From assembly GCA_028714495.1 (NCBI GenBank), contig JAQTMH010000002.1, positions 75,471-139,470 of the forward strand: DNA of 64,000 bases. The letters run 5' to 3'. The notes under the pieces were generated by a model that was not told the DNA's origin, did no database searches, and saw only the letters and a list, made by a program, of their open reading frames with translations. This document shows, one piece after another, positions 9,915 through 56,094 of the stretch; position 1 is the first letter of the stretch, and every line of letters starts with the position of its first letter. Source of the stretch: Patescibacteria group bacterium. GTDB taxonomy: Bacteria; Patescibacteriota; Patescibacteriia; JAHIZJ01. The position numbers and the translations under genes are program-made.

Positions 9915-9922
9915 TTCTTAGC

Positions 9923-9979: not shown

Positions 9980-9980
9980 G

Positions 9981-10275: not shown

Positions 10276-10284
10276 TTGGCCCAA

Positions 10285-29690: not shown

Positions 29691-29691
29691 T

Positions 29692-30906: not shown

Positions 30907-30909
30907 AAA

Positions 30910-32244
30910 ATGATTAGGAGGAATACAAAAGGAGTAACTCTCATCGAGGTCATTGTTGGACTGGCGATTTTCGCTATGGCCATGGCCGGCATCTATAATC
31001 TCTTTAATTTGGCCACTAAGATGCTGGGTGACAATCGAGCGCGCGTCGACGCGATTGCGATGGCAAATAAACGGATTGAGATGATCCGAAATCTTGCGTA
31101 CGACAATGTCGGCATCACGGGTGGTATCCCAAACGGAACAATTCCACAGACCGAACAGCTGGTCGTAAACAACATTACTTATACCCTCGAAACGGATATC
31201 CGATATGTCGACGACCCTTTTGACGGTACGGCCACTGGCGCCCCGCCTGATACAAATAGCGCTGACTATAAACGCATCCGAATCGAAGTAACCTGGCCGC
31301 GGATGCTGAACAATAAACCCGTTATCTTGGTCACCGACGTGACGCCGAAGGGTATGGAAAAAACAGTCGGCGGTGGAACGATTTTGCTGACCGTATTTGA
31401 CGCCCTAGGACAGCCTGTGCCGTCAGCCGCCGTGCATGTCGAAAATACCGACGTCAACCCGATTGTTAACTATGATACGACAACCCAAGCCAACGGTACA
31501 CTTGTCCTACCCGGCATGCCCCCTTCGATCGAAACCTATGACGTCCGCGTGACCAAGGGCGGCTACAGCACGGATCAAACATATGAAATCGATCCCATCG
31601 CCAATCCCAATCCCACTCGTCCACCCCTGTCGGTGTATTTGAATGTTGTGACGGAAGCCAGCTTCTCTATTGATCGTCTAAGCACGGTGAATATCCAAAC
31701 GTTTGATCAGGCTAGTCAACCACTCCCAAATATCGACTTTACGTTGCGCGGTTCAAAAACAATTGGAACCGATGGCGTCGGTGCCCCGATCTATAAATAC
31801 TCTCAAGCATTCACCACGAACGCGACTGGAGAAATCACGATTTCAGATCTTGAATGGGATTCGTACAACTTTATTATTGATAATGCTGGGATAAATTACG
31901 ACATCGCGGGAGCTAACCCACCGCTTCCGATTAATCTCGATCCAGACGCAACTCAAACAACACAAATTTCACTCGCCACGCCTCACACGAATCATACGCT
32001 TCTCGTCACAGTCCGCGATCAAAACATGGTCCTTATGCCAAACATCGCCGTTCAGCTAAACCGCTTAGTACCACCCTACGATGAAACGCAAACAACCTCC
32101 GCCTGGGGACAGACGTTTTTCCCGTCGCTTGTCCAGGGCGATTACACTATCTTTATCCAAGCAACCGGCTATCAGGATCATAACGAGGTTATAACAATCG
32201 ACGGCCAACGGACCATAGAAATAGTGATGATCCCCCCAATCTAA
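30910..32244 (+). CDS. large prepilin-type protein (class III signal peptide) with three CarboxypepD_reg / transthyretin-like beta-sandwich domains; putative minor pilin or adhesin
   Basis: N-terminus MIRRNTKG|VTLIEVIVGLAIFAMAMAG fits the prepilin G-(F/V)TLIE cleavage/methylation motif. C-terminus has repeated GTIxLxVxDxxGxPxxxAxV...GxYxV blocks. Confidence 0.75.
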   Translation: MIRRNTKGVTLIEVIVGLAIFAMAMAGIYNLFNLATKMLGDNRARVDAIAMANKRIEMIRNLAYDNVGITGGIPNGTIPQTEQLVVNNITYTLETDIRYVDDPFDGTATGAPPDTNSADYKRIRIEVTWPRMLNNKPVILVTDVTPKGMEKTVGGGTILLTVFDALGQPVPSAAVHVENTDVNPIVNYDTTTQANGTLVLPGMPPSIETYDVRVTKGGYSTDQTYEIDPIANPNPTRPPLSVYLNVVTEASFSIDRLSTVNIQTFDQASQPLPNIDFTLRGSKTIGTDGVGAPIYKYSQAFTTNATGEITISDLEWDSYNFIIDNAGINYDIAGANPPLPINLDPDATQTTQISLATPHTNHTLLVTVRDQNMVLMPNIAVQLNRLVPPYDETQTTSAWGQTFFPSLVQGDYTIFIQATGYQDHNEVITIDGQRTIEIVMIPPI

Positions 32245-32247
32245 ACC

Positions 32248-32865
32248 ATGCGCGCCTATTCCAATAAAACCGGATTTACGCTTGTTGAAGCGCTGGTCGC
32301 GCTGGCAATTTTTGGCATTATCTTAGCGATTTTATCAAACTTTTTATTACAGGGGATGCGTTTTCAAACATTTGCCAGCGAACAGCAACAGCAGGTCGAA
32401 TTCGCGCGAAGCAGCGCCCAAACAATGGTTAAAGAATTGCGCGAAGCCGAGCCCGGCGATGATGGTTCATACATACTCAATCGGGCCGAGGATCAGGAGA
32501 TTATCTTTTTTAGCAATATTGATGCCGATCAAGCGACCGAACGCGTCCGGTATTTTCTTGACGGCACGACCTTCAAAAAAGGAATTATCGAACCCAGTGG
32601 CGAACCGATCATTTATGACCAGGCAACCGAGACAGTAACCACGCTCGTAGAATACATACGCAATGGAACGACACCGATCTTCTTGTACTACAACGGGGAC
32701 TATCCGGGCGACATGACACACAATCCCCTGCCCACGCCGACCCGTTTAACCGAAACAAAGTTATTAAACGTATATTTACGGATTAATGTCAACGAAAGCC
32801 AGGCGCCAAATCAAACCGAGGTTATAACCGAGGTTCAAATACGTAATTTGAAAAATAATTTATGA
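32248..32865 (+). CDS. prepilin-type N-terminal cleavage/methylation domain protein (pilin/pseudopilin)
   Basis: MRAYSNKTG|FTLVEALVALAIFGIIL; 205 aa. Confidence 0.8.
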   Translation: MRAYSNKTGFTLVEALVALAIFGIILAILSNFLLQGMRFQTFASEQQQQVEFARSSAQTMVKELREAEPGDDGSYILNRAEDQEIIFFSNIDADQATERVRYFLDGTTFKKGIIEPSGEPIIYDQATETVTTLVEYIRNGTTPIFLYYNGDYPGDMTHNPLPTPTRLTETKLLNVYLRINVNESQAPNQTEVITEVQIRNLKNNL

Positions 32866-34256
32866 TACGTATTATACGAAATAATAAATCACAAGGCGCT
32901 ACCCTGGTTATGGCGATCGTTTTGTTGACGATTTATATGCTTATGCTTGGCGGTATTATCAACCTCGTCATGTCGCAAAACAAGCAAACTATTCGACAAA
33001 TCTCCTGGGAACGCTCACTCGCCATCGCGGAGGCTGGCGCAAACTTCAGCCGTTGGCGCTTAGTCCACGACTCTAATGATTTCAGTTTTTCGGGCACCTA
33101 TGATTACAGCGACCCCCAGGGTGGAGTTATCGGTCAGTATTCCTTGGAAATAACCGAACCCGTTACCTGCACCACCATGGTTACGGTCAAGTCAACGGGT
33201 TGGACGCTCGACTTCCCAAACGTCAAGCGAACTGTCAAAGTACGCTATAACCGAGCTTCATTGGCCCAATATGCTTTTTTGACTAATTCAGATATCTGGA
33301 TTGGCGAGAACGAAGACGTACAAGGGCCGCTTCACTCAAATGGCGGCGTTCGAATGGATGGCACCCAAAACGCCGAATCGACATCATCTAAAGAAACCTA
33401 TACCTGCCAGCCGATGCATGGTTGTAATCCCGCCACGCAAAAGCCCGGCATCTGGGGCAGCGGCAGTGGCGGCGCCAGCGGCTTATGGAGATTTCCCGTG
33501 TCAGTCGTAGATTTTAATGTCATTACGACCGACCTGGCTGATCTGAAGACTAAAGCGCAGAATGGCGGGTATTACTTTGAACCGTCTGGCGCCTTTGGCT
33601 ATCATATCATTTTTAAAAATACCGGCGCCTTTGATCTCTATAAAGTTACTGAGCTAGAACCGGATGTCTGGGGTTGCGACACCGAGTGGAATTGCGCTTG
33701 GGATTCGAACGACATTAAACACGAAGAACTTGTCGACCGGTATGATTTGGCGGAAGATCAATGCGATATCCAAAACCTGATCTTTGTTGAAGATAAAAAA
33801 GTCTGGGTTGACGGAGTGTTAAAAGAAAAAGCTACAGTCGCGGCGGCTCAATTTCCCGATACTGCCGCCACTAATTCGTCCATAATCATTAACGGCAACA
33901 TTACACGCGCCGATCCCGCTGACACTATGCTTGGTCTTATCGCTCAAAAAAACGTACTGGTGCCATATTACTCGCCGAATATTTTGGAAATCCAGGCGGT
34001 CATGGTCGCCCAGAAAGGCGCGGTCCAACGTTTATATTATGCCGGCAATGTAAAAAATAAAATACTGGTTCGAGGTTCAATCATCACCAACAACGTCTGG
34101 ACCTGGTCATGGGTGAATGGTGGTGGCACGGTAGTTTCTGGGTATGAGCTCACGGAATCGCATTTCGAACCGGCCTTAATCTACGCTCCGCCGCCGTTCT
34201 TTCCCGGCACTGGCGAATACAATTTTATCTCCTGGGAGGAACTTCCTCAGGAGTAA
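32862..34256 (+). CDS. PilX-like minor pilin / pilus assembly protein with Cys-rich globular domain
   Basis: N-terminus KSQG|ATLVMAIVLLTIYML (prepilin-like, no Glu5); 464 aa. Confidence 0.6.
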   Translation: MIRIIRNNKSQGATLVMAIVLLTIYMLMLGGIINLVMSQNKQTIRQISWERSLAIAEAGANFSRWRLVHDSNDFSFSGTYDYSDPQGGVIGQYSLEITEPVTCTTMVTVKSTGWTLDFPNVKRTVKVRYNRASLAQYAFLTNSDIWIGENEDVQGPLHSNGGVRMDGTQNAESTSSKETYTCQPMHGCNPATQKPGIWGSGSGGASGLWRFPVSVVDFNVITTDLADLKTKAQNGGYYFEPSGAFGYHIIFKNTGAFDLYKVTELEPDVWGCDTEWNCAWDSNDIKHEELVDRYDLAEDQCDIQNLIFVEDKKVWVDGVLKEKATVAAAQFPDTAATNSSIIINGNITRADPADTMLGLIAQKNVLVPYYSPNILEIQAVMVAQKGAVQRLYYAGNVKNKILVRGSIITNNVWTWSWVNGGGTVVSGYELTESHFEPALIYAPPPFFPGTGEYNFISWEELPQE

Positions 34257-34318
34257 AGCTTTTAATTATCCGAGCGGCCTGGTAAAATAGTAGCAGTAGG
34301 CGGAATCTAAAACTTATT

Positions 34319-35401
34319 ATGTCTTTTTTCCAAAACAACCAAAACGCCATCGGGCTTGATATTAGTGATTTAACCTTGCGCGCCGTCCAATTCAAGGGTC
34401 AGGGCCGAGGCCTGGCTTTTGAAGGATACGGTCAGATTGACGTTCCCCCGGGAATTATAAAAAATGGTGAAATTCTCGAGCCTAGAACCGTCTCTGATTT
34501 AATTAAAAGAATGATCTCCCGCCCGAGTTTTGGCCGTTTCTCTACTAAAAATGTCATAGCTTCTTTACCCGAACGTCGATCATTTATAAAAGCGCTGGAA
34601 ATACCCCAGATTGACAGCCAGCAGTTAGAGGTAACGATTCGTCAAGAAATGAGCCAGCATGTTCCTTTTTCGGCCGATGAAATATACCTCGACTGGCAAA
34701 TGTTTAAGTCTGGGGCCTCGGCCGATACGTCCAGGGTGCTAATTGGAGCAACTCCAAAGTCGATTGTTGACTCATACATCGCGGCCCTCGAGGACGCTGA
34801 CTTGAGGCCAGTCTCCTTGGTTATCGAATCAATGGCTATTGCCTACGCTCTCATCCCGCCAAACGCCGAAAAGAACACTTCGGCCATGATTTTGGACATC
34901 GGTCTCAACCGGACTAGTTTCCTGGTTTTTGACCAGGGGGCGGTTCGTTTCAGCGCCTCAAGCAAGGTAATCTCCGGGTCGGCAATGACTCGGCTGATTG
35001 CCCAAAAACTTAGTCTGAGTAACGATCAGGCTGAAGAGGCGAAAAGGCTGTGCGGACTTGATCCAACCCAGGGTAAAGCCGTCATTCCCAAAACTCTGAT
35101 GCCGGCGATTGACCAATTAGCCAAACAAATCGAGAAATTTTTACAATATTACAAGACCCATGTGCCTCAGGCCAACGAAATTTCTCAGATCATTCTGGCG
35201 GGTGGCGGAGCCAATTTGAAAAACCTGACCAAGGTATTAAGCGAGAAGCTTGGCCGAAAGGTTGTTCTCGGAAACCCTTGGTGCCAATTCGAGCATCTCC
35301 AAAAAACCAAAGTTATTCCCAGCCAGCAATATCTCTCACAACCAACCTCTTTCGGCCTCGGTCTGCTTGGACTGGCAAACCTTTCTCGAAAAAAGAAATG
35401 A
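34319..35401 (+). CDS. pilM: type IV pilus assembly protein PilM (actin-like ATPase)
   Basis: IGLDISDLTLRAVQFK N-terminus and ILAGGGANL are actin-fold motifs. Confidence 0.85.
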   Translation: MSFFQNNQNAIGLDISDLTLRAVQFKGQGRGLAFEGYGQIDVPPGIIKNGEILEPRTVSDLIKRMISRPSFGRFSTKNVIASLPERRSFIKALEIPQIDSQQLEVTIRQEMSQHVPFSADEIYLDWQMFKSGASADTSRVLIGATPKSIVDSYIAALEDADLRPVSLVIESMAIAYALIPPNAEKNTSAMILDIGLNRTSFLVFDQGAVRFSASSKVISGSAMTRLIAQKLSLSNDQAEEAKRLCGLDPTQGKAVIPKTLMPAIDQLAKQIEKFLQYYKTHVPQANEISQIILAGGGANLKNLTKVLSEKLGRKVVLGNPWCQFEHLQKTKVIPSQQYLSQPTSFGLGLLGLANLSRKKK

Positions 35402-42103: not shown

Positions 42104-43495
42104 GTGTGTTATTATAAAAACAAGTTTACTCCTCCTATTTTACCCAGTAATCCAAAAAACGTCAAAATGACCCGTCGAACGCGCCGGATTCTCTATCTTT
42201 CTTTCATTCTGATGTTCTTTATATTGGCTCCGATTCTGGTGCTCTACTCTTCTGGCTACCGTTTTGACTGGTCCAGAAAACAGCTTCTGAAGACAGCCTT
42301 ACTCCGTCTCAACACTGAGCCCGGGGGCGCCACAGTCTATGTCAATGGTCAGCCTCAAAAGAATAAAACCCCCACCGCCATAAACAATCTTTTGCCTGGT
42401 ACCTACGATATCCGGGTTGAAAAGGACGGCTATCTTCCCTGGCAAAATTCCATCAGTCTAAAATCTAAAACTGTCGAATTTCTGACCGATATCACTTTAT
42501 TCCGAGACACCTCGCCTGAACTTGTCCTGGATAAAACGATTGGCAAATTGACGGCCCTGCCGGATTCTAACGAAGCGCTCTTTGTGACGCCCATTGAAAA
42601 CGGTTTTGAACTTAACAAGCTCAACCTGGCAAACCAGAAAGAAACGAATATGCTAACACGGCCGACTGAAATAAATATTGAAACAGAGGCCGTAAACAAC
42701 CACTTAATTATTTCTTCCCTTGCCAACGGCCTTCCGGTTTATGAAGACATGGACATCACCGTGCCGGAGAAAGCCACGGCAATAAATTGGGCCCCGAAAG
42801 ACATTTCAAAGCTCCAGTGGCTGGACAATAAAAGCTTCTTCGGGATTGCCGAGGGAGTCCTGTGCCAGATTTTTCTGGAAAAACCTGAATTTAATTGCGC
42901 TGGCCCAGCCGTGACCGAGTTTTTACTGCAGGATAAATATGTTTACTATCTTTCCTCCGATATTGAATCTACCCTGCTCTACCGAGCGCCAATTAATAAT
43001 CTCGAGGGGGAGCTGATTGTCCGGCTGCCAAAATCCGAAGACTACCGCTTTATCCCAAAATCAGAACCATTGGTGGTTTTTATCGACGGCCAGACCGAAG
43101 ACCTTGTCCTGATTGATCCGGAGAACACCCCCGGGAAGATAACCACCATACCCAGGACAGCCAAAGATGCTTTTTGGCATGAGGCGGGGGAACAATTGGT
43201 ATATTATAACGATTTTGAGATTTGGCGCTGGAATATTGAAACCGATGAACGAACGCTTCTGACGCGCTTAAGCGAGCCGATCCAATGGGCCAATCGCTAT
43301 GGCTGGTTTGATTACGTGATTTTTTCCCAGGAAAAAAACATTCAAGCCCTTGAGCTTGAAAGTCACACTCCATCCCGAACCACCACCTCCCTGGTCAATA
43401 ATGCCACGGGTCACTTTATCCTTGACCGTGAAAGTAAAAACCTTTTTTATATCGGCAGTAACGGGGATAGACTCTGGAAACGCCCCTTGCGTTAA
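42104..43495 (+). CDS. membrane-anchored PEGA-domain protein, hypothetical
   Basis: TM near the N-terminus, then a PEGA domain (TEPGGATVYVNGQPQ...GTYDIRVEKDGYLPW). The true start is probably the internal Met at 42167, which leaves an 85-bp divergent promoter region with murA. Confidence 0.6.
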   Translation: MCYYKNKFTPPILPSNPKNVKMTRRTRRILYLSFILMFFILAPILVLYSSGYRFDWSRKQLLKTALLRLNTEPGGATVYVNGQPQKNKTPTAINNLLPGTYDIRVEKDGYLPWQNSISLKSKTVEFLTDITLFRDTSPELVLDKTIGKLTALPDSNEALFVTPIENGFELNKLNLANQKETNMLTRPTEINIETEAVNNHLIISSLANGLPVYEDMDITVPEKATAINWAPKDISKLQWLDNKSFFGIAEGVLCQIFLEKPEFNCAGPAVTEFLLQDKYVYYLSSDIESTLLYRAPINNLEGELIVRLPKSEDYRFIPKSEPLVVFIDGQTEDLVLIDPENTPGKITTIPRTAKDAFWHEAGEQLVYYNDFEIWRWNIETDERTLLTRLSEPIQWANRYGWFDYVIFSQEKNIQALELESHTPSRTTTSLVNNATGHFILDRESKNLFYIGSNGDRLWKRPLR

Positions 43496-44316
43496 ACCTT
43501 TTTACTCTTGAGATAATCAGCCAAAGCCTCGGTCCAAGGTCTGAGGGGTTTGAATTTGGTGTTAAGCAGCGATGAATTGGCTGGCCGCTTAGCGGCGGTT
43601 TTGTATTCTTTTGAACTGATGGCTTTCAGTTTGACCGGCATATCAGCAAGTTCAAATATCTTTTTGGCAAATTCATACCAGCTGACAGTTCCCTCGTTAA
43701 CCAAATGGTAGATACCATAATCAGGCTGCGTGTCAATCAGCACGGCGATGGCTCTGGCCAAATCAAAGGTGTAGGTCGGCCTGATAAATTGATCACTGAC
43801 TATCTTGATTTCACCGCCAGCTTTGCCTTTCTCAAGCATGGTATCCACGAAATTCTTGCCGTTCGGTCCGTAAAGTCCCTGGGTGCGGACGAGAAAATAT
43901 GCTTCGGTGATTTTACGGAGTTTTTTTTCGCCTTCAGCTTTCGTCTTGCCGTAGGTGTTTATCGGCTTGGGCGGATCATCTTCCCTATAACCATCAGTGG
44001 TCTGGCCATCGAAGACGTAATCAGTGCTGATATGAATCAACGGGGTATTCAACTGTTCACAGCCCTCGGCTAAAATCGCCACCCCATCGGCATTTACGGC
44101 CTTGGCTTCTTTCTTATGTTTTTCCGCGCCGTCAACATCAGTAAAGGCGGCGACATTAATTACCACTTCGGGATTCTCAGCCACCATTTTGTCGATAATT
44201 GTCTCGTCCGTGATATTATACTCAGGCAAATCCCAAAGAACAAGCTGGTGGCCCTTAAGAACCTCTTTCAGGGCCGTACCAAGCATTCCCTTGTGGCCGA
44301 TAATGAGTAATTTCAT
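43492..44316 (-). CDS. rfbD: dTDP-4-dehydrorhamnose reductase
   Basis: MKLLIIGHKGMLGTAL Rossmann N-terminus; RmlD family; 274 aa. Confidence 0.85.
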   Translation of the reverse strand: MKLLIIGHKGMLGTALKEVLKGHQLVLWDLPEYNITDETIIDKMVAENPEVVINVAAFTDVDGAEKHKKEAKAVNADGVAILAEGCEQLNTPLIHISTDYVFDGQTTDGYREDDPPKPINTYGKTKAEGEKKLRKITEAYFLVRTQGLYGPNGKNFVDTMLEKGKAGGEIKIVSDQFIRPTYTFDLARAIAVLIDTQPDYGIYHLVNEGTVSWYEFAKKIFELADMPVKLKAISSKEYKTAAKRPANSSLLNTKFKPLRPWTEALADYLKSKKV

Positions 44317-44404
44317 TTTTTTATAACTTAATTGGATAATTACACCTTTCTGGCTGCTTTATCTTACCTGGTATTTTTTCCTGTGTAAAGAATTATTTGC
44401 AGAC

Positions 44405-45403
44405 TTAGCGGTTATACTGTTGTTTGTAATATTTAAGATATTCGCCGCTTTTCAGCTTCTTCCACCAATCCTGATGTTCTCGATACCACTCGATTGTTTC
44501 TTTAAGCGCTTGTTCAAATGAATGCTCCGGCTCCCACCCAAGGCGGCGCAATTTTTCGGAATTCACGGCATAACGACGGTCGTGTCCTGGTCTGTCTTTA
44601 ACATATTCAATCATGGCTTCATCCAGACCCATGATTTCCAAAACCAAACGGGTAATCTCAATGTTTGTCTTACGCTCACCCGTGCCGATATTATAAACTT
44701 CACCATCCTCGCCTTTCTGGATAATTGTATCTAAGGCCTGGCAATAATCGGGCACGTAAATCCACTCCCGGATATTCAAACCATCGCCGTAGACCGGCAC
44801 CTTCCTACCTTCAACCAGATTGGTGATAAAAAGTGGTATCAGCTTCTCGGGATATTGATAGGGTCCGTAAAAATTGCAACTGTGCGTAACAATAGTCGGC
44901 AAGCCGAAAGTTTTCCAATAGGCCCTGACCATATGATCGCCCCCGGCCTTTGATGCCGAGTAGGGGCTGTTCGGTTCAAAAGCCGTCTCCTCAGTAAATT
45001 CTCCGTCTTCGGTCGAACCGAATACTTCATCAGTGGAGACTTGGATATACCGCTTGACCCCGTATTTCCTGGCCGCTTCGAGAAGTGTGTAAGTGCCGAA
45101 AACGTCAGTCATGATAAAGCTCTTGGCGCCGAGAATTGAACGGTCAACGTGGGTTTCAGCCGCGAAATTAATTATCTGGTCAATCCCCTTTTTCATCACT
45201 TTATCAACCATTTTCTCGTCAGCGATATCGCCTTTGACAAATTCATATCTTGGATTATTTTCAATGTCTTTTAAATTTTCCAAATTGCCGGCATAGGTCA
45301 GCTTATCTAAATTGACCACCTGGAATTCCGGATAGTTGTTGATGAGATAGCGGATAAAGTTGGAGCCCATAAATCCCGCACCGCCGGTAATTAAGAATTT
45401 CAT
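44405..45403 (-). CDS. rfbB: dTDP-glucose 4,6-dehydratase
   Basis: MKFLITGGAGFMGSNF, YSASKAGGD (YxxxK motif), RmlB family. Confidence 0.9.
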   Translation of the reverse strand: MKFLITGGAGFMGSNFIRYLINNYPEFQVVNLDKLTYAGNLENLKDIENNPRYEFVKGDIADEKMVDKVMKKGIDQIINFAAETHVDRSILGAKSFIMTDVFGTYTLLEAARKYGVKRYIQVSTDEVFGSTEDGEFTEETAFEPNSPYSASKAGGDHMVRAYWKTFGLPTIVTHSCNFYGPYQYPEKLIPLFITNLVEGRKVPVYGDGLNIREWIYVPDYCQALDTIIQKGEDGEVYNIGTGERKTNIEITRLVLEIMGLDEAMIEYVKDRPGHDRRYAVNSEKLRRLGWEPEHSFEQALKETIEWYREHQDWWKKLKSGEYLKYYKQQYNR

Positions 45404-45407
45404 AATT

Positions 45408-45497
45408 AATTTAAAATTAATAATTTAAAATGTAAAATTATTGTATCCGCCCAGGGCGGATTCTTTCATTTTTAATTCTTAATTTTGAATTTTTCCC
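45408..45497 (-). promoter_or_regulatory. rfbB promoter (TTTACA-N17-TAAATT) with R-element copy 2 directly upstream
   Basis: Minus-strand -35 at 45431-45436, -10 at 45408-45413. R-element (ATCCGCC-CAGG-GGCGGAT plus A/T arm) at 45441-45497. Same architecture as the asparaginase-operon promoter. Confidence 0.5.
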
Positions 45498-45504
45498 AGA
45501 ACCA

Positions 45505-45558
45505 CGTTGGGTTCTGGGAACCCCGTACCCAAGCCTGCGAGCGGTACGGGGTTAATTG
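45505..45558. repeat. two adjacent GC-rich palindromic hairpins (REP-like) 3' of ahcY
   Basis: CCCAGAACC-acgttg-GGTTCTGGG (9-bp stem) and AACCCCGTACC-N13-GGTACGGGGTT (11-bp stem). Confidence 0.55.
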
Positions 45559-45560
45559 CC

Positions 45561-46820
<1,260 letters not shown>

Positions 46821-46857
46821 TTAGTTTATTGGTTAATTTGTTAATTGGTTGATTTGT

Positions 46858-48516
46858 TTACTCTGTGAATTGGAAGGTGGAAAGAAGCTGTGTGCGGAGT
46901 GAAGCATCACTATAGAATGCGTTTGTAGTATTGTCGCACTCACCGAAATACAATTTCATTATCTTATCGGTAGAAAGTGCTGTTTGAATCATATCTCCCC
47001 CGCAACCCGCGTCGCCTTCGCGGTACTGATAGCCGCTTTGCGTCCCTACTGTCACGGTGGTCGTAGCCTGTTTACCATAGATGCCTATGATGTTATTTGG
47101 ATCGAGTGGTCCAGCTATAAAATTAATCTTGAATGCCTTGGAGTGGTCCGTAGCTGAGAATGACACTCCATCAGCACCGGTAATGTTGGCATAGGTCATA
47201 TCAGCTGGATACCTCAGAGAAAAATGATGCTCAGTGTTCGTATATGTTAACCAATCCGCAGTTTCGTCGGTGAATTGGAAAGTGGAGAGAAGTTGGTCGA
47301 TGTAATTCAGATTATTCTCTGTTTCGGCGGTCAAGTTTGTACGATCATACAAATTCCTGAGATCGTTTCTTCGGGCGCTCTCATTTTGATCCTCGCTCCC
47401 TAAACATTCTTGCGAAGATGGCAATGAGGCTGATAAAAGAAGACCGACATAATCCCCTGCCGTAAGATTAAGCCGGACTTCTCGGAGATTCCAAAACGAG
47501 CATTCATCACCCCAGGCAACAAAGGCATCATAAGTCTGTTGGCCATCAATCGTTGTGCGTCGGCAAATGTTTGTTGCCGTATCATTGAGGACACCTTCGT
47601 TTTCGCACCCTAACGCGAGGTTCTCGCCGCCATTGTATTTTAATTGCTTAAACTGGTTAAAATCACTCGAGCTTCCAATGAACGAAATACTCGCGGCTTG
47701 CGTAAAGTTGATTTGAATGGCCTTACCAGAAAATATTTTCGAACCTGTTTCTTGAACACTCATTGACGAGTCAATGGCTTTTGCGGTCACCTCACCCCAA
47801 GCTGGTGGATAGCTAAAAGAAATTCTAAGGTCTGCATTCGTATATGTTTTCCAGTCAGCGGTTTCGTCGGTGAATTGGAAAGAAGCCACCAATTGAGTAA
47901 AGTCGTCATGTGAGGGAACCGCTGTAACATTTGCCGAGTCATATTCCAAACCCCAGGTTTTACCGTTGTGGTTGAAATAATAATAATCAATAGTGGCTGA
48001 TGTCGCACCCTTGACCCTATGCTTACCAACACCGAGCATACCAGTTATGCGGTAGGCGGTTTCACCAGCGACAGTGGTTGTGGTTGGCTCTAGATTGCCA
48101 CCTGCTTGACTCGAAGCGAAAGCTGAAAGATCACCTTGGTATGTATCGTATAATACGACTCCAATCGGACCAGGCCCAACCGCATCAGTGTACCTCGGAC
48201 CATTCTTGTCCGGATCGGTATTGGCGATTATGCGAACGGCCGTACCATTTGTGTATTTTCGGACAACTGCTTGATTCGGATATTCAAAACTAATGCCAAG
48301 GTCGGCATTAATATATGTGTTGTTTGTCGCCGTATTCGTGTTCTTGTTTGATTTAATCGTTAAACCGGCAGTATTGTTGTCATCAAGTTCTGTGAAAGTA
48401 TTGTAAAAAAAGAAAGCGCCGCCGGCAAAAAGGGCAAAAGCGATAACAATCGCCAGAGCGATGACAGGAGAGAAGCCGGGAAAAGTAATTTTGGGTTGAA
48501 TTTTCTTTTTTGTCAT
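46858..48516 (-). CDS. surface-anchored protein (N-terminal TM, N/T-rich linker) with three tandem copies of an uncharacterised 'W-TYTN ... FQFT' domain
   Basis: Domains start at ...NNTYINADLGISFEYP, DETADWKTYTNADLRISFSYP and DETADWLTYTNTEHHFSLRYP. They end at QLVASFQFTD, QLLSTFQFTD and QLLSTFQFTE; the last is the C-terminus. Confidence 0.6.
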   Translation of the reverse strand: MTKKKIQPKITFPGFSPVIALAIVIAFALFAGGAFFFYNTFTELDDNNTAGLTIKSNKNTNTATNNTYINADLGISFEYPNQAVVRKYTNGTAVRIIANTDPDKNGPRYTDAVGPGPIGVVLYDTYQGDLSAFASSQAGGNLEPTTTTVAGETAYRITGMLGVGKHRVKGATSATIDYYYFNHNGKTWGLEYDSANVTAVPSHDDFTQLVASFQFTDETADWKTYTNADLRISFSYPPAWGEVTAKAIDSSMSVQETGSKIFSGKAIQINFTQAASISFIGSSSDFNQFKQLKYNGGENLALGCENEGVLNDTATNICRRTTIDGQQTYDAFVAWGDECSFWNLREVRLNLTAGDYVGLLLSASLPSSQECLGSEDQNESARRNDLRNLYDRTNLTAETENNLNYIDQLLSTFQFTDETADWLTYTNTEHHFSLRYPADMTYANITGADGVSFSATDHSKAFKINFIAGPLDPNNIIGIYGKQATTTVTVGTQSGYQYREGDAGCGGDMIQTALSTDKIMKLYFGECDNTTNAFYSDASLRTQLLSTFQFTE

Positions 48517-48531
48517 AATACGAAATTATAA

Positions 48532-50148
48532 TTAGTCCTTAACAGTGAATTTTATAACCTTTTGATTTTGTGACACTAGTAGGTTATAGTTAAGCCCAAT
48601 TGCAATATCTTGTACCCACTGCGCCCGATAAAAAATTTGTTTTGCATTTGTAAACTTTTCTCCATCAAAAACATACGTATCTCCAACAGTACCGATATAC
48701 CAGTATTTTTTATCACTCGCGATTGTCGTCACACTCATTTCTTCTCCTGTATCAGTCACTGTTTTATTACCGTCGAATTTATAAACATGTGCATTTTCCT
48801 GGCCGCGTGTTCCGAGAAGCCAATATGATCCATTCCATGCACCCTTGCTGATATGATAATCATTAAGAGCGGATACACGGGTAATGTTATCCCCATTATA
48901 CCAATATGCTTTTCCATCGTAAGTCAAAATGAGCCATCTTGCGCCGTCCCAAATGGCCTCCTCAATATTTTGAACATTATTATCTAATTGGTCTGGTATC
49001 TGGCTGGTAAGATCGGTGAATGTCGATCCATCATAACGGATCAGTTGCCCAAGCCTGTTCCCGAGGAGCCAATATTGGCCGTTCCAGCCGATGGCATCAA
49101 AACCCGTTAAACCAGACGAATTGGGCATTTGGCTGGATAAATTGATCATCGTGTTCCCATCAAACTCGAGAAGGGGCGCGTTCGGACTTTGAACGAGTGA
49201 AATAATCCAGTTCTGGCCATTACTTCTCAAGTTAGCCACTGATCGGTATTCTGGTCTATCAACCAAAGGTAATTTATTGGTAAGATCCACAACCCCGTTA
49301 GAATCATACTGAAATAGTTTACTGTTTGTTCCACCGATCAACGCGGTCGAACCATTAATATTAACTGTTTCTATTCCATTTCCACCAAAACCAGAAAATA
49401 ATCCACTGATATCCTCAACCTCAAGGTCTTGCAAATCCTCTATGCCAGTGAATTGGAATGTTGAAAGAACCAATTCAGCAATAGATCCTTGTTCAGGATG
49501 AACAGTTGTCTGAAGTTTGTAGTTTATTCCGTTCCGTTCAATACATAGGATATATTGAACATTGCCCTTATCGTCAATTTTTTGTCCGCGCGTTCCTTCA
49601 ACACTATCGATTGTTGTCTTGCTGGTATTGCTTAAATCCTGTAGGCACCATGACTGTGCTTGATTAGTCTGTATTTCAAAATCAATATAATACATACCCA
49701 ACTGTAAAGTGGGCAAATATCTATCGTTATATTCATCAATATTGTAGAAATTATTCATCTGAATGTGTGTGCTTGTCGATATTGATGTTTGTCTTAAATC
49801 TGGTGGATATTTAAATGAGACACTCTCGATAGTATCGGTATATGTATCCCAATATTTCAGTCGTTCATTGGTGACTAACGAGTTCGTATTCAAATTTACG
49901 CTAGAATTAGTGTTTCTGTTTAGGTTTGCATCGAGATCGTCATTTAGATTGGTGCTTGCCACCGTATTGGTATTATTGTTCGTTTGAATTGATGTAATCG
50001 TGTTGGTATTATCATTTTTAGTCTGAATCGATAGATAATAAAATACTCCGCCGACGATCAAAGCGATGGCAACTACTATGACTATCCCAATCGCCGATGA
50101 AAACCCTGCTTTTGAAGTTTTAGTTGTCTTTTTCTTCGTTCTTTTCAT
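48532..50148 (-). CDS. surface-anchored protein, paralogue of the previous one: TM, N/T-rich linker, one W-TYT...FQFT domain, C-terminal W-repeat (beta-propeller-like) domain
   Basis: KYWDTYTDTIESVSFKYP ... ELVLSTFQFTG. Then repeats NGQNWIISL / NGQYWLLGN / DGARWLILT / NGSYWLLGT / KKYWYIGT. Confidence 0.6.
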   Translation of the reverse strand: MKRTKKKTTKTSKAGFSSAIGIVIVVAIALIVGGVFYYLSIQTKNDNTNTITSIQTNNNTNTVASTNLNDDLDANLNRNTNSSVNLNTNSLVTNERLKYWDTYTDTIESVSFKYPPDLRQTSISTSTHIQMNNFYNIDEYNDRYLPTLQLGMYYIDFEIQTNQAQSWCLQDLSNTSKTTIDSVEGTRGQKIDDKGNVQYILCIERNGINYKLQTTVHPEQGSIAELVLSTFQFTGIEDLQDLEVEDISGLFSGFGGNGIETVNINGSTALIGGTNSKLFQYDSNGVVDLTNKLPLVDRPEYRSVANLRSNGQNWIISLVQSPNAPLLEFDGNTMINLSSQMPNSSGLTGFDAIGWNGQYWLLGNRLGQLIRYDGSTFTDLTSQIPDQLDNNVQNIEEAIWDGARWLILTYDGKAYWYNGDNITRVSALNDYHISKGAWNGSYWLLGTRGQENAHVYKFDGNKTVTDTGEEMSVTTIASDKKYWYIGTVGDTYVFDGEKFTNAKQIFYRAQWVQDIAIGLNYNLLVSQNQKVIKFTVKD

Positions 50149-50161
50149 GGTTTGTAAAGTA

Positions 50162-51106
50162 TCAAATCTTTATATCTTCATGAAAATTTTCCTTGTACCG
50201 ATTGATAAACTCCTGCGTTGTATACGACTGTTCCTGCGTGCCATAGTACTCGATCGGATAAACCGCGGTTAAGGCGGCCAGGCGGCCAATTACCTCCAGG
50301 GAATAACTGCCTAAAAAACCCTTGATCAATCCAGCTCGATAAGCGTCTCCGGCGCCGGTTGGATCCTTAATCTCCCGAGGCTTGGCAATCGGTATCTGAA
50401 AACCCTTGTCTTTGGTTTCGATTAATGAACCAGCCTCGCCCTTGGTGGTAATGACCAGCTCGGTTTTTTTTAAAATGTCTGACTTGGTTAAACCGGTTTT
50501 TTTTAAAATCAAACCAATCTCATAGTCGTTGCCGATCACGATGCGCGCTCCCTGGATGGCAAATTTCAAATGATCAGCTGAAATTACGGGAATCTGCTGG
50601 GCCGGATCGAAGATGTAGGGTATGCTCAAACGCTGGTATTCCTTAGCATAATATAGCATATCATCCACGTTGCCGGCGACCACTATTCCGAAAAGTCCTC
50701 CGGTTTGCTTTTTTATCGCTTCAATATCGACATGGCTGGCCTCTTTCATCGCGCCCGGGTGGAAAGCGGTAATCTGGTTGTCGTCCTGGTCAGTCATAAT
50801 ATAAGCGCCGGCCGTGTGATCGTCATTTATTTTTATATGGCTTATGTCTACTCCATGCTGATTCAGCCAGTCGCGATAGGGTGAAAAATCTTTCCCGGCC
50901 GTAGCCAAAATAATCGGTTTTTCTTTTAGCAGTGAGAGGTTATAGGCAATGTTACCGGCGGTTCCGCCAAAATTCTCCCTCAGATTATTTACGTGGAAGC
51001 TGACGCTAAGCACGTGGATTTTTTCCGGCAGAATATGGTCTTTGAACCGTCCGGGAAAATCCATGATTCGATCATAGGCTAGTGAACCGGAGACGAGGAT
51101 TTTCAT
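50162..51106 (-). CDS. PfkB-family carbohydrate/sugar kinase
   Basis: Ribokinase-like fold; DPTGAGDAYRAG anion-hole motif near the C-terminus. Confidence 0.8.
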   Translation of the reverse strand: MKILVSGSLAYDRIMDFPGRFKDHILPEKIHVLSVSFHVNNLRENFGGTAGNIAYNLSLLKEKPIILATAGKDFSPYRDWLNQHGVDISHIKINDDHTAGAYIMTDQDDNQITAFHPGAMKEASHVDIEAIKKQTGGLFGIVVAGNVDDMLYYAKEYQRLSIPYIFDPAQQIPVISADHLKFAIQGARIVIGNDYEIGLILKKTGLTKSDILKKTELVITTKGEAGSLIETKDKGFQIPIAKPREIKDPTGAGDAYRAGLIKGFLGSYSLEVIGRLAALTAVYPIEYYGTQEQSYTTQEFINRYKENFHEDIKI

Positions 51107-51192
51107 TTGAAATTAAGAATTCAGAATTTAGAAGTAAGAATGAATGTATTTGACAAAGTCAAACACTTAAATTATTCATTCTTAATTATCAA

Positions 51193-51675
51193 TTATAAAT
51201 TGTTTTTCTTCCAGTCAAACCCGATTGTCTGATCATCAGGCGCTAGGCGCTTTTCATCCGGGTTTTTAATGTCATACGGTTCGGTCGTGTGATAAAAAAG
51301 CAGCACCGGCTCTTCGCTCAAAACTTTGTAGCCGTGCGCCACGCCAATGGGAATGCGAACTACCTTGTAATCGTCCTGGCCGGCGAAAACAACCTGGGTT
51401 TCGCCCTTAGTCGCGGAATCTTCCCGCAGATCATAAAGCACGATCATCGCTTTTCCCGTGGCCACGAACCAAAGATCCTCCTGCCGCTCGTGGTAGTGGA
51501 AGGCCTTGATCGTACCTTGATAAGCCACCGTGAAAGTGGTTTGGCCGAACTTCTTGAGCAAGTCCTCGTCGTTTCGAATCACCTCCATCAGGAAACCTGG
51601 TTTGTCCGAATCCTCTTTCCGATCGGGTATGTCTTGGTGGACTTTTAAAGATTTAATCTGTACACCATGGATCAT
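51193..51675 (-). CDS. rfbC: dTDP-4-dehydrorhamnose 3,5-epimerase-like cupin (short RmlC)
   Basis: HYHERQEDLWFVATGKAMIVLYDLR...VRIPIGVAHGY; 160 aa. Confidence 0.75.
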   Translation of the reverse strand: MIHGVQIKSLKVHQDIPDRKEDSDKPGFLMEVIRNDEDLLKKFGQTTFTVAYQGTIKAFHYHERQEDLWFVATGKAMIVLYDLREDSATKGETQVVFAGQDDYKVVRIPIGVAHGYKVLSEEPVLLFYHTTEPYDIKNPDEKRLAPDDQTIGFDWKKNNL

Positions 51676-52402
51676 GGCCGGTATCTTTAATGGTCTTGGC
51701 TACGAGTTGTCCCGCCTCTAATAAACTTTCGAAAGATTCGCCGCCGTCTCCCCACCAACCCTTGAGCACGCTGTAAGTCATGGTACTTTCCTTGATGAAA
51801 TAATTATTTACGTCAGTGATTTCGAGTTCACCGCGTTTCGACGGTTTGAGGGTATTTACCACATCAAATACGCTACTGTCATACATGTACAAACCGATAA
51901 CCGCTAAATTGGACTTTGGTTTTTTCGGCTTTTCTTCAATGTTAATGATGCGGTCGCCGTCAATCTCCGCGATGCCTAGAGATTGCGGATATTTCGTCTC
52001 CTTCAAAAATATCTTTGCCCCGCTTGGCTGTTTTTCAAAATCTTGAACCGCCTCTTTTATGTCATCAACTAGGATATTATCGCCCAACATCACAATAATC
52101 TTGCCCCCGTCGATAAAATCCTTGGCCAAACCCAGGGCTTGGGCGATTCCCCCCGGTTCTTCTTGCACTTCATACGAGAATTTTACGCCAAATCTTTTTC
52201 CTGAACCCAGTAATTCCAGCAAATGGCCTACATGTCCTTTTCCGGAAACCACGAGAATATCCTCGATGCCCGCTTTTTTTAAAGTCGCGATCGGATAGTA
52301 AATCATCGGTCTATTAAACACCGGCAAAAGGTGTTTATTTGTCACCCGGGTGAGTGGGGCTAAACGCGAACCAGTCCCCCCGGCTAAAATTACGCCTTTC
52401 AT
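51653..52402 (-). CDS. rfbA: glucose-1-phosphate thymidylyl/uridylyltransferase-like sugar nucleotidyltransferase (short RmlA-like)
   Basis: MKGVILAGGTGSRLAPLTRVTNKHLLPV is a nucleotidyltransferase signature; 249 aa. Confidence 0.8.
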   Translation of the reverse strand: MKGVILAGGTGSRLAPLTRVTNKHLLPVFNRPMIYYPIATLKKAGIEDILVVSGKGHVGHLLELLGSGKRFGVKFSYEVQEEPGGIAQALGLAKDFIDGGKIIVMLGDNILVDDIKEAVQDFEKQPSGAKIFLKETKYPQSLGIAEIDGDRIINIEEKPKKPKSNLAVIGLYMYDSSVFDVVNTLKPSKRGELEITDVNNYFIKESTMTYSVLKGWWGDGGESFESLLEAGQLVAKTIKDTGHDPWCTD

Positions 52403-52661: not shown

Positions 52662-54347
52662 TTAAAAAATCTTTTTTAAAAATGACTTAAATCTGGGCAG
52701 TAGATTGCTGAAGGTAATCGGATCTTTTTCAAACTTTACCGAGACTTCATTAATCTTGAATATTCTGTTGTTCTCGACCAAACCCGGCAAATGAACCATA
52801 AATCTAACAGTATTATTTTCAGTGTACAAATAGGGCACCTCAACTGTCTGGCTCACCACTTCCCAGTTTCCTTCATGGAGAGCTTCCGGGTAATCGGCGA
52901 TAATGTAATCATATTTATCAATATCCGATTGTTTCATAATAACGCTTAATTCACTGATTCCAAAGTACGGATCAAAGTACTGTTCTGGCTCAAACGAGAA
53001 AAAACCGTTGCCTCTAATGAAAATATCGTTTTTCGGCGACACAATCTCCTGAATTTTTCCAGCTCCGCCGGTTTCCACCGAATATTCTTTGTGAAGTTGA
53101 TCTATTTTTACCTCAGCTCCACCGATTTTTACCGTTTGAAAACCGTTGGCATGAGCGGTGCGCACTTGAAAACTATTTCCGTTTGAATAAATCGTCGTTG
53201 GCCGCTCCACCAAATCAGGAAAAGCTCCACGATACTCGTTATTATCAGTCAGGTAAAGGAAATCGGCGAAAACTATCAGGTGTTGTTTGGTTTCGATTTT
53301 CCGTATAAATATCTCATCGTTTTTTATGCCCAAACGGATGCGATACAAACCGTTCGCTGGCTTGGGAATAGATAATTGGACTTCTTTCTGGACTGATGGC
53401 TTACCGTTGGCGGAAGAATTACCATCATCAGCTACTTCAATGCTTTCCACCTTTTCCTCACCCTTAAATACGTCAATTGCGAAATCATCCGCGCCTGAAT
53501 GCCGATTTATATCCTGAATGAAAAATTTAAAGTCGAGCGGTTCATTCTCAAGGTAGGCATATATCTCATGCTCACCCCTGATGCTTGAATCAATAGTGGT
53601 AATCTCCTGGGATGACTGATAGTCGGGTATTTTCAGATATGGACTTAGATCAATATTACTGCGCAGGACTTTTGCGTGGTTCGGAATTCTATTTAAAAAT
53701 TCTTTTATACTGGAAGAGGTCGCTCCGTTTTCTGGTTCGTCCAATCGATCGTTTAAAGTACTCAACTCGGCCTTCAACCTTGAGATCTCACCGCTGTTTA
53801 GGCCACCCTCTTTCTCCTCTTCAGTTTGAATCTGCTCTTCAAGCTTATTTATTTCCTGGTCCAAAACCATAGCCTCGTCATCTCGCTGGTACAAAACCAG
53901 ATTGTCTTCGCGGATTTTTTTCCAATAGCCAGGCAGGTTTTCCAGAGTCGAATTATAAACCCCAAGGTTTTTAAAATAATTATCTCCGCCCTTTTGGGTA
54001 ACGCCCAATATTATATTGTTTTGCCCTGATGGATTCTGATATTTCAAAGTAACTGTGGCTTTTGGAAATACCCGGGGAACTTTTACGTCAAAATAGACGG
54101 GTTCCTGGGTGATATAGCGAAAATAGTCCATTGTCCCCTTGGCCGATCCGATCAATTCGTCTTTCTCTTTTGAAGCGAAATTTTGAACCAGGGGCGATTC
54201 CTGGTCCCCCACCCGATAAACCACCATCATTGAACCGAATGGCACGAAATTTTTATTCAAAAGCCACACCACAATCGCAATCGGGGCAATTATAAAAATT
54301 ATTCCGGTTATCCGCAAAGCTCTTTTGGCTGATTTGCTTGGTTCCAT
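52662..54347 (-). CDS. hypothetical membrane-anchored extracytoplasmic protein (561 aa) with a coiled-coil segment
   Basis: Single N-terminal TM (ITGIIFIIAPIAIVVWLL); coiled coil at about residues 160-210; no recognisable catalytic motifs. Confidence 0.55.
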   Translation of the reverse strand: MEPSKSAKRALRITGIIFIIAPIAIVVWLLNKNFVPFGSMMVVYRVGDQESPLVQNFASKEKDELIGSAKGTMDYFRYITQEPVYFDVKVPRVFPKATVTLKYQNPSGQNNIILGVTQKGGDNYFKNLGVYNSTLENLPGYWKKIREDNLVLYQRDDEAMVLDQEINKLEEQIQTEEEKEGGLNSGEISRLKAELSTLNDRLDEPENGATSSSIKEFLNRIPNHAKVLRSNIDLSPYLKIPDYQSSQEITTIDSSIRGEHEIYAYLENEPLDFKFFIQDINRHSGADDFAIDVFKGEEKVESIEVADDGNSSANGKPSVQKEVQLSIPKPANGLYRIRLGIKNDEIFIRKIETKQHLIVFADFLYLTDNNEYRGAFPDLVERPTTIYSNGNSFQVRTAHANGFQTVKIGGAEVKIDQLHKEYSVETGGAGKIQEIVSPKNDIFIRGNGFFSFEPEQYFDPYFGISELSVIMKQSDIDKYDYIIADYPEALHEGNWEVVSQTVEVPYLYTENNTVRFMVHLPGLVENNRIFKINEVSVKFEKDPITFSNLLPRFKSFLKKIF

Positions 54348-54411: not shown

Positions 54412-56094
54412 TTAGGGAAATTCCAGTTTATAAAAGCTTGCCTGGTCAGACAGAGTGGAGAGTTCGATTAGTTTAATCGTGGGTAAAAACGCTGCCGCTT
54501 GCTTCTCGAGTTCTTGGCAATTTATTTCAACCGGCTGGCAATAATAATAAATCGGCGCCTGCTTTGCCAAACCTTTTATTTCGACGCGCAACTTAATGTT
54601 TCCCAGGTCAAAAGCGGCGATAACTTTGCGCTCAGGAAAAATCACCTTGTCCCCTTTGCCGGTTATCACCACGGAATTCTTCGGGGTTAATTTGACAACC
54701 TCTTGGCTAACTTTTTCATATCCGGCAATATCTCGACGAATTTTTGCCAGACCATAAAGCGGATCAAAAAGCACCGTCGTGATCGAAAGAGCGACGATTA
54801 AACATGCCAGGAAAATTCCGAAAAATATTTTCAACTTTTTCGTCTTAAACCAATCGATCATCCATGATAAACCAGTTGCGCAAAACGGCAAGCTAAAAAT
54901 AAACACTGGCAGCCAATAACGCAGATATGAGTGTCCGAGGATGATCCGATCCGGGTCGGAGAATTCCTTGAGATCCCAGCTGCCATAATACAAAACCAAC
55001 CAAATTAAAATAAACAAGAATGCTAAGGCGTATGTCTTTTGCCCTCGGGTAATTCTTCCTGATTCGCTTGGCTTTAGCCAATCTCTCAGCCAATTTCTAA
55101 AGAATAAAACTAGGCCGAGACCAAAGGGAATCGCGTACCAGGGAAAGATGACGATAAAATAATCATAAAAATTGTGAAGCGCCAGTCCGAGGTTCAAGCC
55201 AAAGGGAAATAGCGCCTGGCTGATTTTTAAACCTAGGCCGGTTGTGGCTGAACCGATCGTGCCAAAATCAAGCGTTTCCTGGGAATAGCCAAAAGCCAGA
55301 GGGTTTCCGTATAACTTATTGTTTAAATAGCCAATCGGCAACAAGAACAGGCAGAGAGTGAGTAAAGAGACGGCGGCTTTAAGCCAGCTAATGCGCTTTT
55401 TAAAAACTAAAAATAATATTAACAGCATTGGCAAAAGCCAGATGGCCTCTGAAACTCGAAATATTATCGCTAAACCCAACGCAATTCCAAGAAAGATGTA
55501 ATTCATTAGTTTGGAAAAACGCACTGCCTTGATAAAAAAATAAACCGTGATAATAACGCAACTCGCGAAAGGAACATTGTGCATCATGCTTCGTCCTGAA
55601 AAATACCAAAAAGCCGGCTGGAGAAAAAGCAGCAACGAGCTAAAAAAAGCAATTCTATTATCAAATAACTGTTTTACCAACAAATAGAAAAATATCACGG
55701 CGATGATCGCGATCATCGGTGTGATAAATCTGACCATTGCTAGACTAAAAACTTTCGCTATTAAACCATAGATTAGCGGCAAACCAATAAAGCTATTCGG
55801 CACCAGCTTGCCCTGTACCATATCGGTATAGGGCTTGCCCTCAACTAAATCCACGCTGCGCGGTCGGATCAAGCCCGGAGCAAAGGAATCAAGCGGCTCT
55901 GAAACGCTTAAGCTGGAACTTTGCGCAAACGACTTGGTAAAAAAATAATTGGCTGTTTCGTCAGGAGATACAAATTTTGTAGGCGAACCAAAGGAACTGA
56001 AAGAGTACAAAACGAAAAAAGCCGCCCCAAGCAATACTAACATTATTAGCTCGGGTTTGCGCTTCAAAAAAGATGTTCTCGGTAATAACGTCAT
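54412..56094 (-). CDS. GT-C fold polytopic membrane glycosyltransferase (PMT/ArnT-like), second copy
   Basis: 560 aa, at least 11 TM helices; DE motif in the first periplasmic loop (FVSPDETANYFF); large C-terminal soluble domain. Confidence 0.65.
   Translation of the reverse strand: MTLLPRTSFLKRKPELIMLVLLGAAFFVLYSFSSFGSPTKFVSPDETANYFFTKSFAQSSSLSVSEPLDSFAPGLIRPRSVDLVEGKPYTDMVQGKLVPNSFIGLPLIYGLIAKVFSLAMVRFITPMIAIIAVIFFYLLVKQLFDNRIAFFSSLLLFLQPAFWYFSGRSMMHNVPFASCVIITVYFFIKAVRFSKLMNYIFLGIALGLAIIFRVSEAIWLLPMLLILFLVFKKRISWLKAAVSLLTLCLFLLPIGYLNNKLYGNPLAFGYSQETLDFGTIGSATTGLGLKISQALFPFGLNLGLALHNFYDYFIVIFPWYAIPFGLGLVLFFRNWLRDWLKPSESGRITRGQKTYALAFLFILIWLVLYYGSWDLKEFSDPDRIILGHSYLRYWLPVFIFSLPFCATGLSWMIDWFKTKKLKIFFGIFLACLIVALSITTVLFDPLYGLAKIRRDIAGYEKVSQEVVKLTPKNSVVITGKGDKVIFPERKVIAAFDLGNIKLRVEIKGLAKQAPIYYYCQPVEINCQELEKQAAAFLPTIKLIELSTLSDQASFYKLEFP

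Follow-up and report, generated by a model that had tools for sequence, protein, structure and literature searches.

Members of the PsbP superfamily have been described as partners of membrane-anchored complexes (PMC7716261; PMC3482391). PsbP is a soluble single-domain protein, extrinsic to the outer or lumenal face of the membrane, and its fold is also present in CyanoP, in PNSL1 of NDH-PSI and in DcrB (6e8a), MTC28/Rv0040c (4ol4), BT_1490 (3hlz) and Jonesia 3lyd, four non-catalytic single domains that are extracytoplasmic, either membrane-tethered or secreted, and whose partner-binding roles are poorly defined. The Pfam family PF18933 (PsbP_2) is modeled as an N-terminal transmembrane (TM) anchor and linker (profile positions 3-43) followed by the domain. 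This same layout was found in the products of two adjacent genes, p1 and p2, located in a 64,000-nucleotide (nt) stretch of contig JAQTMH010000002.1 (positions 75,471 to 139,470) of a Patescibacteria group bacterium, referred to below as the window; no function has been assigned to PsbP_2 or to these two proteins. An earlier note on this DNA had described in both of them an uncharacterized, repeated extracellular domain. We show that the repeat is a divergent PsbP-like domain, of family PF18933 and with a Mog1p/PsbP-like fold, and not a new domain or signal. The two proteins are probably TM-anchored extracytoplasmic arrays of such domains that would serve as non-catalytic binding or scaffold units, with partners in the envelope as the likeliest ones.

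Both genes lie on the minus strand, with p2 upstream and p1 following after a gap of 15 nt. The 552 amino acid (aa) product of p1 (46858..48516) has an N-terminal TM anchor, from which a short linker leads to three PsbP-like domains in tandem; in the 538 aa product of p2 (48532..50148) a TM anchor and an Asn/Thr-rich linker precede a single PsbP-like domain, and a seven-bladed propeller follows. They are identical to proteins PHI73_02250 and PHI73_02255, respectively, of an NCBI metagenome-assembled genome (MAG) labeled Patescibacteria group bacterium, both deposited as hypothetical proteins. The open reading frames (ORFs) support the earlier view of two adjacent, related proteins with a repeated extracytoplasmic domain. 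On the minus strand, the three domains of p1 occupy 47866..48327 (aa 64-217, 154 aa), 47266..47862 (aa 219-417, 199 aa, with insertions of about 60 aa) and 46861..47262 (aa 419-552, 134 aa), and that of p2 occupies 49441..49860 (aa 97-236, 140 aa), so that the length of about 150 aa proposed for each copy was a fair estimate. As also proposed, p1 carries three tandem copies and its C-terminus reads ...LLSTFQFTE, followed by the stop codon.

The opening motif TY(T/I)(N/D)...(Y/F)P is found at aa 67, 224 and 424 of p1 and aa 102 of p2, and the closing FQFT at aa 213, 413 and 548 of p1 and aa 231 of p2. In their longer forms both motifs hold in general but not in every copy: the opening W-x-TYT(N/D) has N for W in the first copy of p1 (NNTYINADLGISFEYP), and the closing QL...FQFT(D/E) is replaced in p2 by ELVLSTFQFTG, which has neither QL nor D/E. 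Pairwise similarity among the four copies is confined to their two ends. In their DNA the four FQFT sites share just 66-86% identity, a low value which indicates that the duplications are old and that the motifs have been kept by selection on the protein. A profile hidden Markov model (HMM) built from 333 domains of 142 other proteins, from which the window proteins and their close relatives were excluded, matched all four copies over the full length of the profile with domain E-values between 4e-9 and 5e-15 (23.9, 42.4 and 42.6 bits for copies 1 to 3 of p1, and 30.5 bits, E 3e-11, for that of p2). This match of the copies to the HMM is far beyond chance. The domain is absent from every other ORF of the window.

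Against PF18933, p1 scored 48.3 bits (E 1.5e-12, cut-off 27) with three matched stretches. Scanned alone, its first copy reached 20.3 bits over profile positions 44-182 of 184 and its second copy 13.2 bits on the N-terminal motif only. Fifteen of 21 aligned repeats, taken from p1, p2 and eight homologues, matched PsbP_2 at E<1, and among 20 sampled relatives 19 passed the PsbP_2 cut-off, nine of them or their fellows in the sample (9/20) passing also that of canonical PsbP (PF01789). Since the independent HMM joins all four copies with relatives that pass PsbP_2, the four copies are united in this family; p2 is assigned to it through the family HMM and the motif only, as a putative member. Two relatives had already been named "PsbP-related protein" by NCBI. 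The earlier note had presented the repeat as an unrecognized domain and had named its mapping to an existing Pfam family as the finding that would speak against this; such a family was found, PF18933, and together with the modeled fold it does not bear out that description. For canonical PsbP the scores stayed under the cut-offs (PF01789, 17.5 against 23.5; NF040946, 15.9 against 60) and the weak matches sit on the N-terminal motif. No Pfam match to DUF1795, DcrB or Eag was obtained among the 21 repeats. The two proteins also differ from the PsbP_2 profile, in the three tight tandem copies of p1 and in the propeller fusion of p2, and the Pfam model is weak on them, as single copies score 0-20 bits.

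The relationship extends to proteins of known structure. The 21-repeat profile matched the solved cyanobacterial PsbP proteins 2lnj and 2xb3 from the N-terminal Y-x-D...GYEFLYP-x-GW to the C-terminal ...FKTIVSSFTV, and a 42-sequence repeat profile matched CyanoP 2lnj (E 0.0014) and PsbP 2xb3 (E 0.002) over nearly the full length of both partners. Thus PsbP shares with the window copies the hairpin motif Y-x-D...GY-x-F-x-YP-x-W and the C-terminal ...F..I.SSF.V, whereas overall sequence identity is only 9-14%.

The third copy of p1 was picked for AlphaFold2 modeling because it is invisible to Pfam, with the 42-sequence alignment as input. The model had a mean predicted local distance difference test score (pLDDT) of 88.9 and a predicted template modeling score (pTM) of 0.82. 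It shows an antiparallel beta-sheet core, an N-terminal hairpin and a C-terminal helix that can be superposed on solved members of the Mog1p/PsbP-like fold. In a Foldseek search of the PDB its matches were almost all Mog1p/PsbP-like folds, among them BT_1490, CyanoP, plant PsbP, PNSL1, Tsi3, Jonesia 3lyd, MTC28, DcrB and Eag chaperones. The top matches had a probability of 1.00 and query-normalized TM-scores of 0.53-0.67, the range found for PsbP and CyanoP (2lnj/2xb3, 1v2b/2vu4) and PNSL1 (NDH-PSI 9grx), and E-values for PsbP/CyanoP were 1e-5 to 1e-4. Structural similarity was weaker for DcrB and MTC28 (TM-score 0.39-0.46), and DcrB, MTC28, BT_1490 and 3lyd, all single domains, have no detectable sequence relationship to p1 or p2. 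The window proteins differ further from DcrB in that they are TM-anchored and DcrB is lipid-anchored, and from the soluble, single-domain PsbP in their TM anchors, in the several copies of p1 and in the non-photosynthetic source organism; the extrinsic position of PsbP on the outer or lumenal membrane face is similar to the placement predicted for p1 and p2.

In the model, W-x-TYTN forms strand 1 and F-S-L-R-Y strand 2 of the N-terminal hairpin, ASLRTQLL forms the C-terminal helix, and Q-F of FQFT the last short strand, with pLDDT above 90 in the FQFT block. The only nearly invariant columns (W4, T6, Y7, N9, Y18, P19 and F132) all fall in the hairpin or the last strand, whereas the sheet and loops between the motifs are variable and carry insertions. 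The ends are conserved because the hairpin and the helix plus strand build the structural frame of the fold. We also observed that the third copy of p1 belongs to a subtype with loops LDPNNIxGIYGK and EGDAGCGG and a second Cys in FGxC, present in nine of 192 retrieved proteins (P0002, P0003, P0004, P0060, P0067, P0071, P0081 and P0102 among them); it is 47-49% identical to the copies of P0002, P0003 and P0004. These loops and Cys residues could represent a disulfide or a binding site.

The family is very large. An exhaustive HMMER search over 1.84 billion cluster representatives (50% identity) yielded 20,108 representatives at E<=1e-3 and 2,498 at E<=1e-10. In 183 retrieved proteins, one, two, three, four, five and six copies were found in 26, 79, 63, 11, 3 and 1 proteins, respectively; domains had a median length of 146 aa, and the linker between consecutive copies had a median of 4 aa. 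The relatives with a named source were almost all from Patescibacteria (Staskawiczbacteria, Woykebacteria, Kerfeldbacteria, Kuenenbacteria and "Patescibacteria group"), and the MAG of one relative was labeled Methylomirabilota. A search for related loci with p1 returned two partial relatives only, both from Candidatus Kuenenbacteria. In the relative P0081, two PsbP-like domains are joined to the propeller that is also found in p2, therefore the architecture of p2 recurs. Most other fusion partners in the family had no Pfam match. In P0007, aa 1-255 show BNR/Asp-box-like motifs (SNDRGTTW, SSNAGATW) before two PsbP-like domains, below the Pfam BNR threshold.

The N-termini of the two proteins are alike: a segment rich in Lys and Arg leads into a hydrophobic helix of about 23 aa, after which comes low-complexity sequence rich in Asn, Thr and Ser. 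The predicted anchor of p1 (48406..48477, minus strand, about aa 14-37, GFSPVIALAIVIAFALFAGGAFFF) is preceded by five Lys and followed by acidic residues, and that of p2 (50035..50103, minus strand, about aa 16-38) is preceded by eight Lys/Arg. In p2 the low-complexity stalk spans 49861..50034 on the same strand (aa 39-96), and Asn, Thr and Ser account for 43% of the first 96 aa of the protein. When p1 and p2 were compared by BLAST, their best match was this anchor and linker region (43% identity, aa 14-73). The number of Cys residues per domain is even (0, 4 and 2 in copies 1, 2 and 3 of p1, and 2 in the p2 copy). Because positive residues precede the helix and the Cys counts are even, both proteins would have an N-in/C-out topology with their domains outside the cytoplasm.

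The region of p2 C-terminal to its PsbP-like domain had been described in the earlier note as a Trp-rich, propeller-like domain of five repeats. A beta-propeller is indeed predicted there by AlphaFold2 and Foldseek (48535..49437, minus strand, aa 238-538), but it has seven blades and not five. The model (pLDDT 89.5, pTM 0.89) shows seven blades of four strands each, with the N-terminal strand completing the last blade, and an alignment with nine homologues shows seven repeats of the form WNGxYWLIGG..(G)xL..YDG..FTDLS. A 14-sequence propeller profile retrieved Kelch proteins from the PDB at E 4e-7 and 2.5e-5 (9tsn and 4yy8), and a Kelch-like GG/Y/W pattern (hhhhGG...Y...W) is visible in the alignment. 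Seven-bladed Kelch propellers exist, for example in galactose oxidase, and the p2 propeller shares with Kelch propellers the four-stranded blades and this signature. It is unlike them in lacking a Pfam Kelch match, in its fusion to a PsbP-like domain and in its predicted extracellular location. No Pfam family, Kelch included, scored above threshold in p2 or in seven propeller relatives. In Foldseek searches generic seven-bladed WD40, BamB and Ycf48 propellers ranked equally well, and a functional link between PsbP and Ycf48, an assembly factor of photosystem II, was considered and set aside, the Ycf48 match being read as generic similarity of seven-bladed folds. The propeller repeat forms a small family of its own of about ten proteins (P0042-P0050 and P0081), uncaptured by Pfam above threshold. 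Three of these proteins (P0044, P0046 and P0047) have an N-terminal hydrophobic segment and P0044 has also a C-terminal TM segment; some propeller relatives may be archaeal-type surface proteins.

On the minus strand, and with short gaps, the genes around p1 and p2 follow the order rmlA, rmlC, a pfkB-family kinase gene, p2, p1, the gene of S-adenosylhomocysteine hydrolase (AhcY), rmlB and rmlD. No convincing terminator and no clear promoter separate p1, p2 and the neighboring genes, which suggests that they may be co-transcribed. The dTDP-rhamnose genes (43492-52402, minus strand) are thus split into rmlA-rmlC and rmlB-rmlD by the insert of kinase, p2, p1 and AhcY genes, and the pfkB-family kinase beside AhcY could be an adenosine kinase, the two forming a methyl-cycle salvage pair. 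The region between 40 and 62 kb is rich in envelope genes, encoding MurA-like, CtpA-like, PEGA-domain, PMT_2, GT2, GT4 and epimerase proteins. The only plus-strand gene of the block (42104-43495) converges on rmlD and encodes a 463 aa protein in which an N-terminal TM helix is combined with a PEGA domain, a fold associated with surface layers. Between rmlA and a PMT_2 glycosyltransferase gene (54412-56094), the minus strand encodes at 52662-54347 a 561 aa protein that has a TM helix at its N-terminus and no match in Pfam. Farther away, a type IV pilus cluster on the plus strand (27957-35401) encodes PilB (T2SSE), PilC (T2SSF), two N_methyl pilin-like proteins, one of them of 444 aa with CarboxypepD_reg/SpaA-like domains, and PilM; a gene for a PMT-family glycosyltransferase lies just upstream (25919-27823). 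Neither tRNA genes nor Rfam families at the gathering threshold were found in the whole 64 kb (1-64000).

Conserved synteny with the rml genes was considered and rejected, as homologues of rml, ahcY and pfkB were present in none of six related loci. P0004 is adjoined by hydrolase genes of the CHAP and M23 types and by two further PsbP-like genes; the latter are single-domain paralogues (9657-10406 and 11189-11890 of locus L001) that come after P0004, one on either side of the CHAP hydrolase gene. At the P0008 locus, three neighboring genes lie between YceG and MreB-MreC-PBP2; the first has a faint PsbP_2 match, the middle one has no match, and P0008 itself is the third. There is, then, a tendency of PsbP-like genes to occur in clusters. 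In the vicinity of P0005 there are PMT_2 and GT4 genes; no mutual similarity was found between the PMT_2 genes near p1/p2 and those near P0005, and the similarity of p2 to a 468 aa gene product encoded upstream of P0005 is limited to the anchor and linker. What recurs is, on weak evidence, a loose cell-envelope theme and not a conserved operon.

These observations suggest the following role for p1 and p2. The Asn/Thr-rich low-complexity stalk would hold one to three PsbP-like modules outside the membrane, joined by linkers of about 4 aa, to which p2 adds its Kelch-like seven-bladed propeller. Since the family has no conserved polar residue, the modules are most likely non-catalytic, and they would act as binding or scaffold units, possibly with diversified specificities. 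Their likeliest partner would be the cell's own envelope machinery or its wall polymers. An envelope partner is favored because the fold relatives PsbP, PNSL1, DcrB and MTC28 either are envelope proteins or attach to membrane complexes as extrinsic partners, and because of the gene neighborhoods. Mycobacterial LpqN/MTC28, PsbP and DcrB are extrinsic partners of membrane complexes, and by analogy the modules of p1 and p2 may play a parallel role.

Several points weigh against this explanation. Every single copy scored below the PsbP_2 cut-off, the third copy of p1 and the p2 copy had no Pfam match at all when scanned alone, and the whole of p2 had no PsbP_2 match. In sequence, the connection to PsbP proteins of solved structure is marginal (E of about 1e-3), and the structural support comes from a predicted model of one copy of the four. 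The envelope theme, itself weak, was drawn from four loci without background statistics, and the rml linkage is not conserved. A search of the available literature for PsbP-like domains in bacteria of the candidate phyla radiation (CPR) or in non-photosynthetic bacteria found nothing specific, and no ligand, partner or phenotype was found for any PsbP_2 protein. Finally, the hypervariable core would suit host-contact adhesins and envelope scaffolds equally.

Such adhesins are the strongest of the alternatives, though a rather doubtful one: p1 and p2 would form a variable, repeat-built array by which an episymbiotic CPR cell grips its host, with the p2 propeller as a second recognition head. 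Many CPR bacteria are thought to be episymbionts, and the very large and diverse family, with named members almost all in Patescibacteria, a copy number ranging from one to six, fusions to other uncharacterized extracellular modules, a stalk-plus-anchor architecture and a structural frame that is conserved around a hypervariable core with many insertions and deletions, would all agree with this. The gene neighbors, however, are housekeeping envelope genes and not genes of pili or secretion, and we know of no PsbP-fold protein that acts as an adhesin. A connection with pili is in turn the basis of a very improbable explanation, in which p1 and p2 would be pilin-like substrates of a prepilin peptidase, with a class-III signal at G↓F(S/I) (the arrow marks the processing site), and it would be the type IV pilus machinery that processes and displays their arrays. 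Where the TM helix begins, p1 reads ...FPG↓FSPVIA (48406-48480) and p2 ...KAG↓FSSAIG (50035-50110), a [KRQ]-(P)-G-[FIL] motif, of the general form G↓F(S/I/V)-x-P, occupies this position in 47 of 183 relatives (for example MKNQKGFIVPL; P0012, P0063 and P0157), and weak matches were obtained to an NCBIfam archaellin/pilin N-terminal family (14.1 bits, cut-off 20) and to UpsA pilin; moreover, PilB, PilC, PilM and two N_methyl pilins are encoded in the window. Yet these matches are below their cut-offs, and p1 and p2 have no PF07963 N_methyl match at E<=10 whereas the true pilins of the window do match. Glu at position +5 is missing in p1 and p2, and neither Glu nor Asp is found there in any of the 47 relatives with the motif, which is itself missing in three quarters of the family. 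The pilus cluster, about 12 kb away and on the other strand, is not linked to p1 and p2.

The end motif had been read in the earlier note as either a structural element or a recognition or sorting signal. The model upheld the former, as FQFT forms a short strand at the end of the domain, behind the C-terminal helix; the latter was not borne out. It is extremely unlikely that the module is an unrecognized domain with a C-terminal FQFT(E) that functions in sorting, anchoring or proteolytic processing, even if p1 terminates exactly on FQFTE, the last copy lies at most 3 aa from the protein end in 150 of 178 relatives, and Pfam fails to see two of the four copies when they are scanned alone. The consensus QILSTFKFT is equal for 206 internal and 136 terminal copies, with the internal ones separated from the next domain by a linker of about 4 aa; since the motif occurs at both sites alike and is confidently modeled as the last strand of the fold, it marks the edge of the domain and is not a sorting signal. 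Unlike LPXTG, PEP-CTERM and Por_Secre_tail signals, it does not precede a hydrophobic segment or a charged tail, and in p1 nothing comes after it at all; no sorting-domain family of Pfam or NCBIfam matched p1 or p2, PsbP has a similar ending, and the domain itself maps to PF18933 and the PsbP fold. This fold is common to photosystem II extrinsic subunits, Eag/DUF1795 effector chaperones and Tsi3-like immunity proteins, and the weak PF01789 and NF040946 matches might be taken as a hint of such a canonical job in photosystem II or a type VI secretion system (T6SS), a reading of practically negligible probability. Those scores are under their thresholds, and the source of the protein identical to p1 is labeled Patescibacteria group bacterium by NCBI; CPR bacteria are non-photosynthetic and monoderm, and no T6SS is expected in them. 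As for the window, no photosystem or T6SS genes were found among the 37 ORFs scanned. Eag and Tsi3 are single-domain proteins and not TM-anchored tandem arrays, and the TM-score to DcrB and Eag was just 0.39-0.47.

For annotation purposes, p1 can now be described as a membrane-anchored protein with three PsbP-like (PF18933) domains and p2 as one with a PsbP-like domain and a seven-bladed propeller of Kelch-like type. On this branch the Pfam model lacks sensitivity, as it missed the single copies and p2, so that many CPR proteins of this kind are left unannotated. The remaining interest lies in this poor sensitivity, in the size of the family in CPR bacteria and in the small family of Kelch-like propellers outside Pfam. 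A broader idea, which we hold to be improbable, is that tandem PsbP-like modules constitute a major, lineage-wide variable binding scaffold of Patescibacteria, used in host recognition or in organization of the unusual CPR envelope and possibly processed at G↓F; a fixed frame of hairpin and helix could then present hypervariable surfaces in arrays of one to six modules, with propellers or other heads. If true, this would open to experiment one of the most abundant families of CPR surface proteins that lack an explanation.

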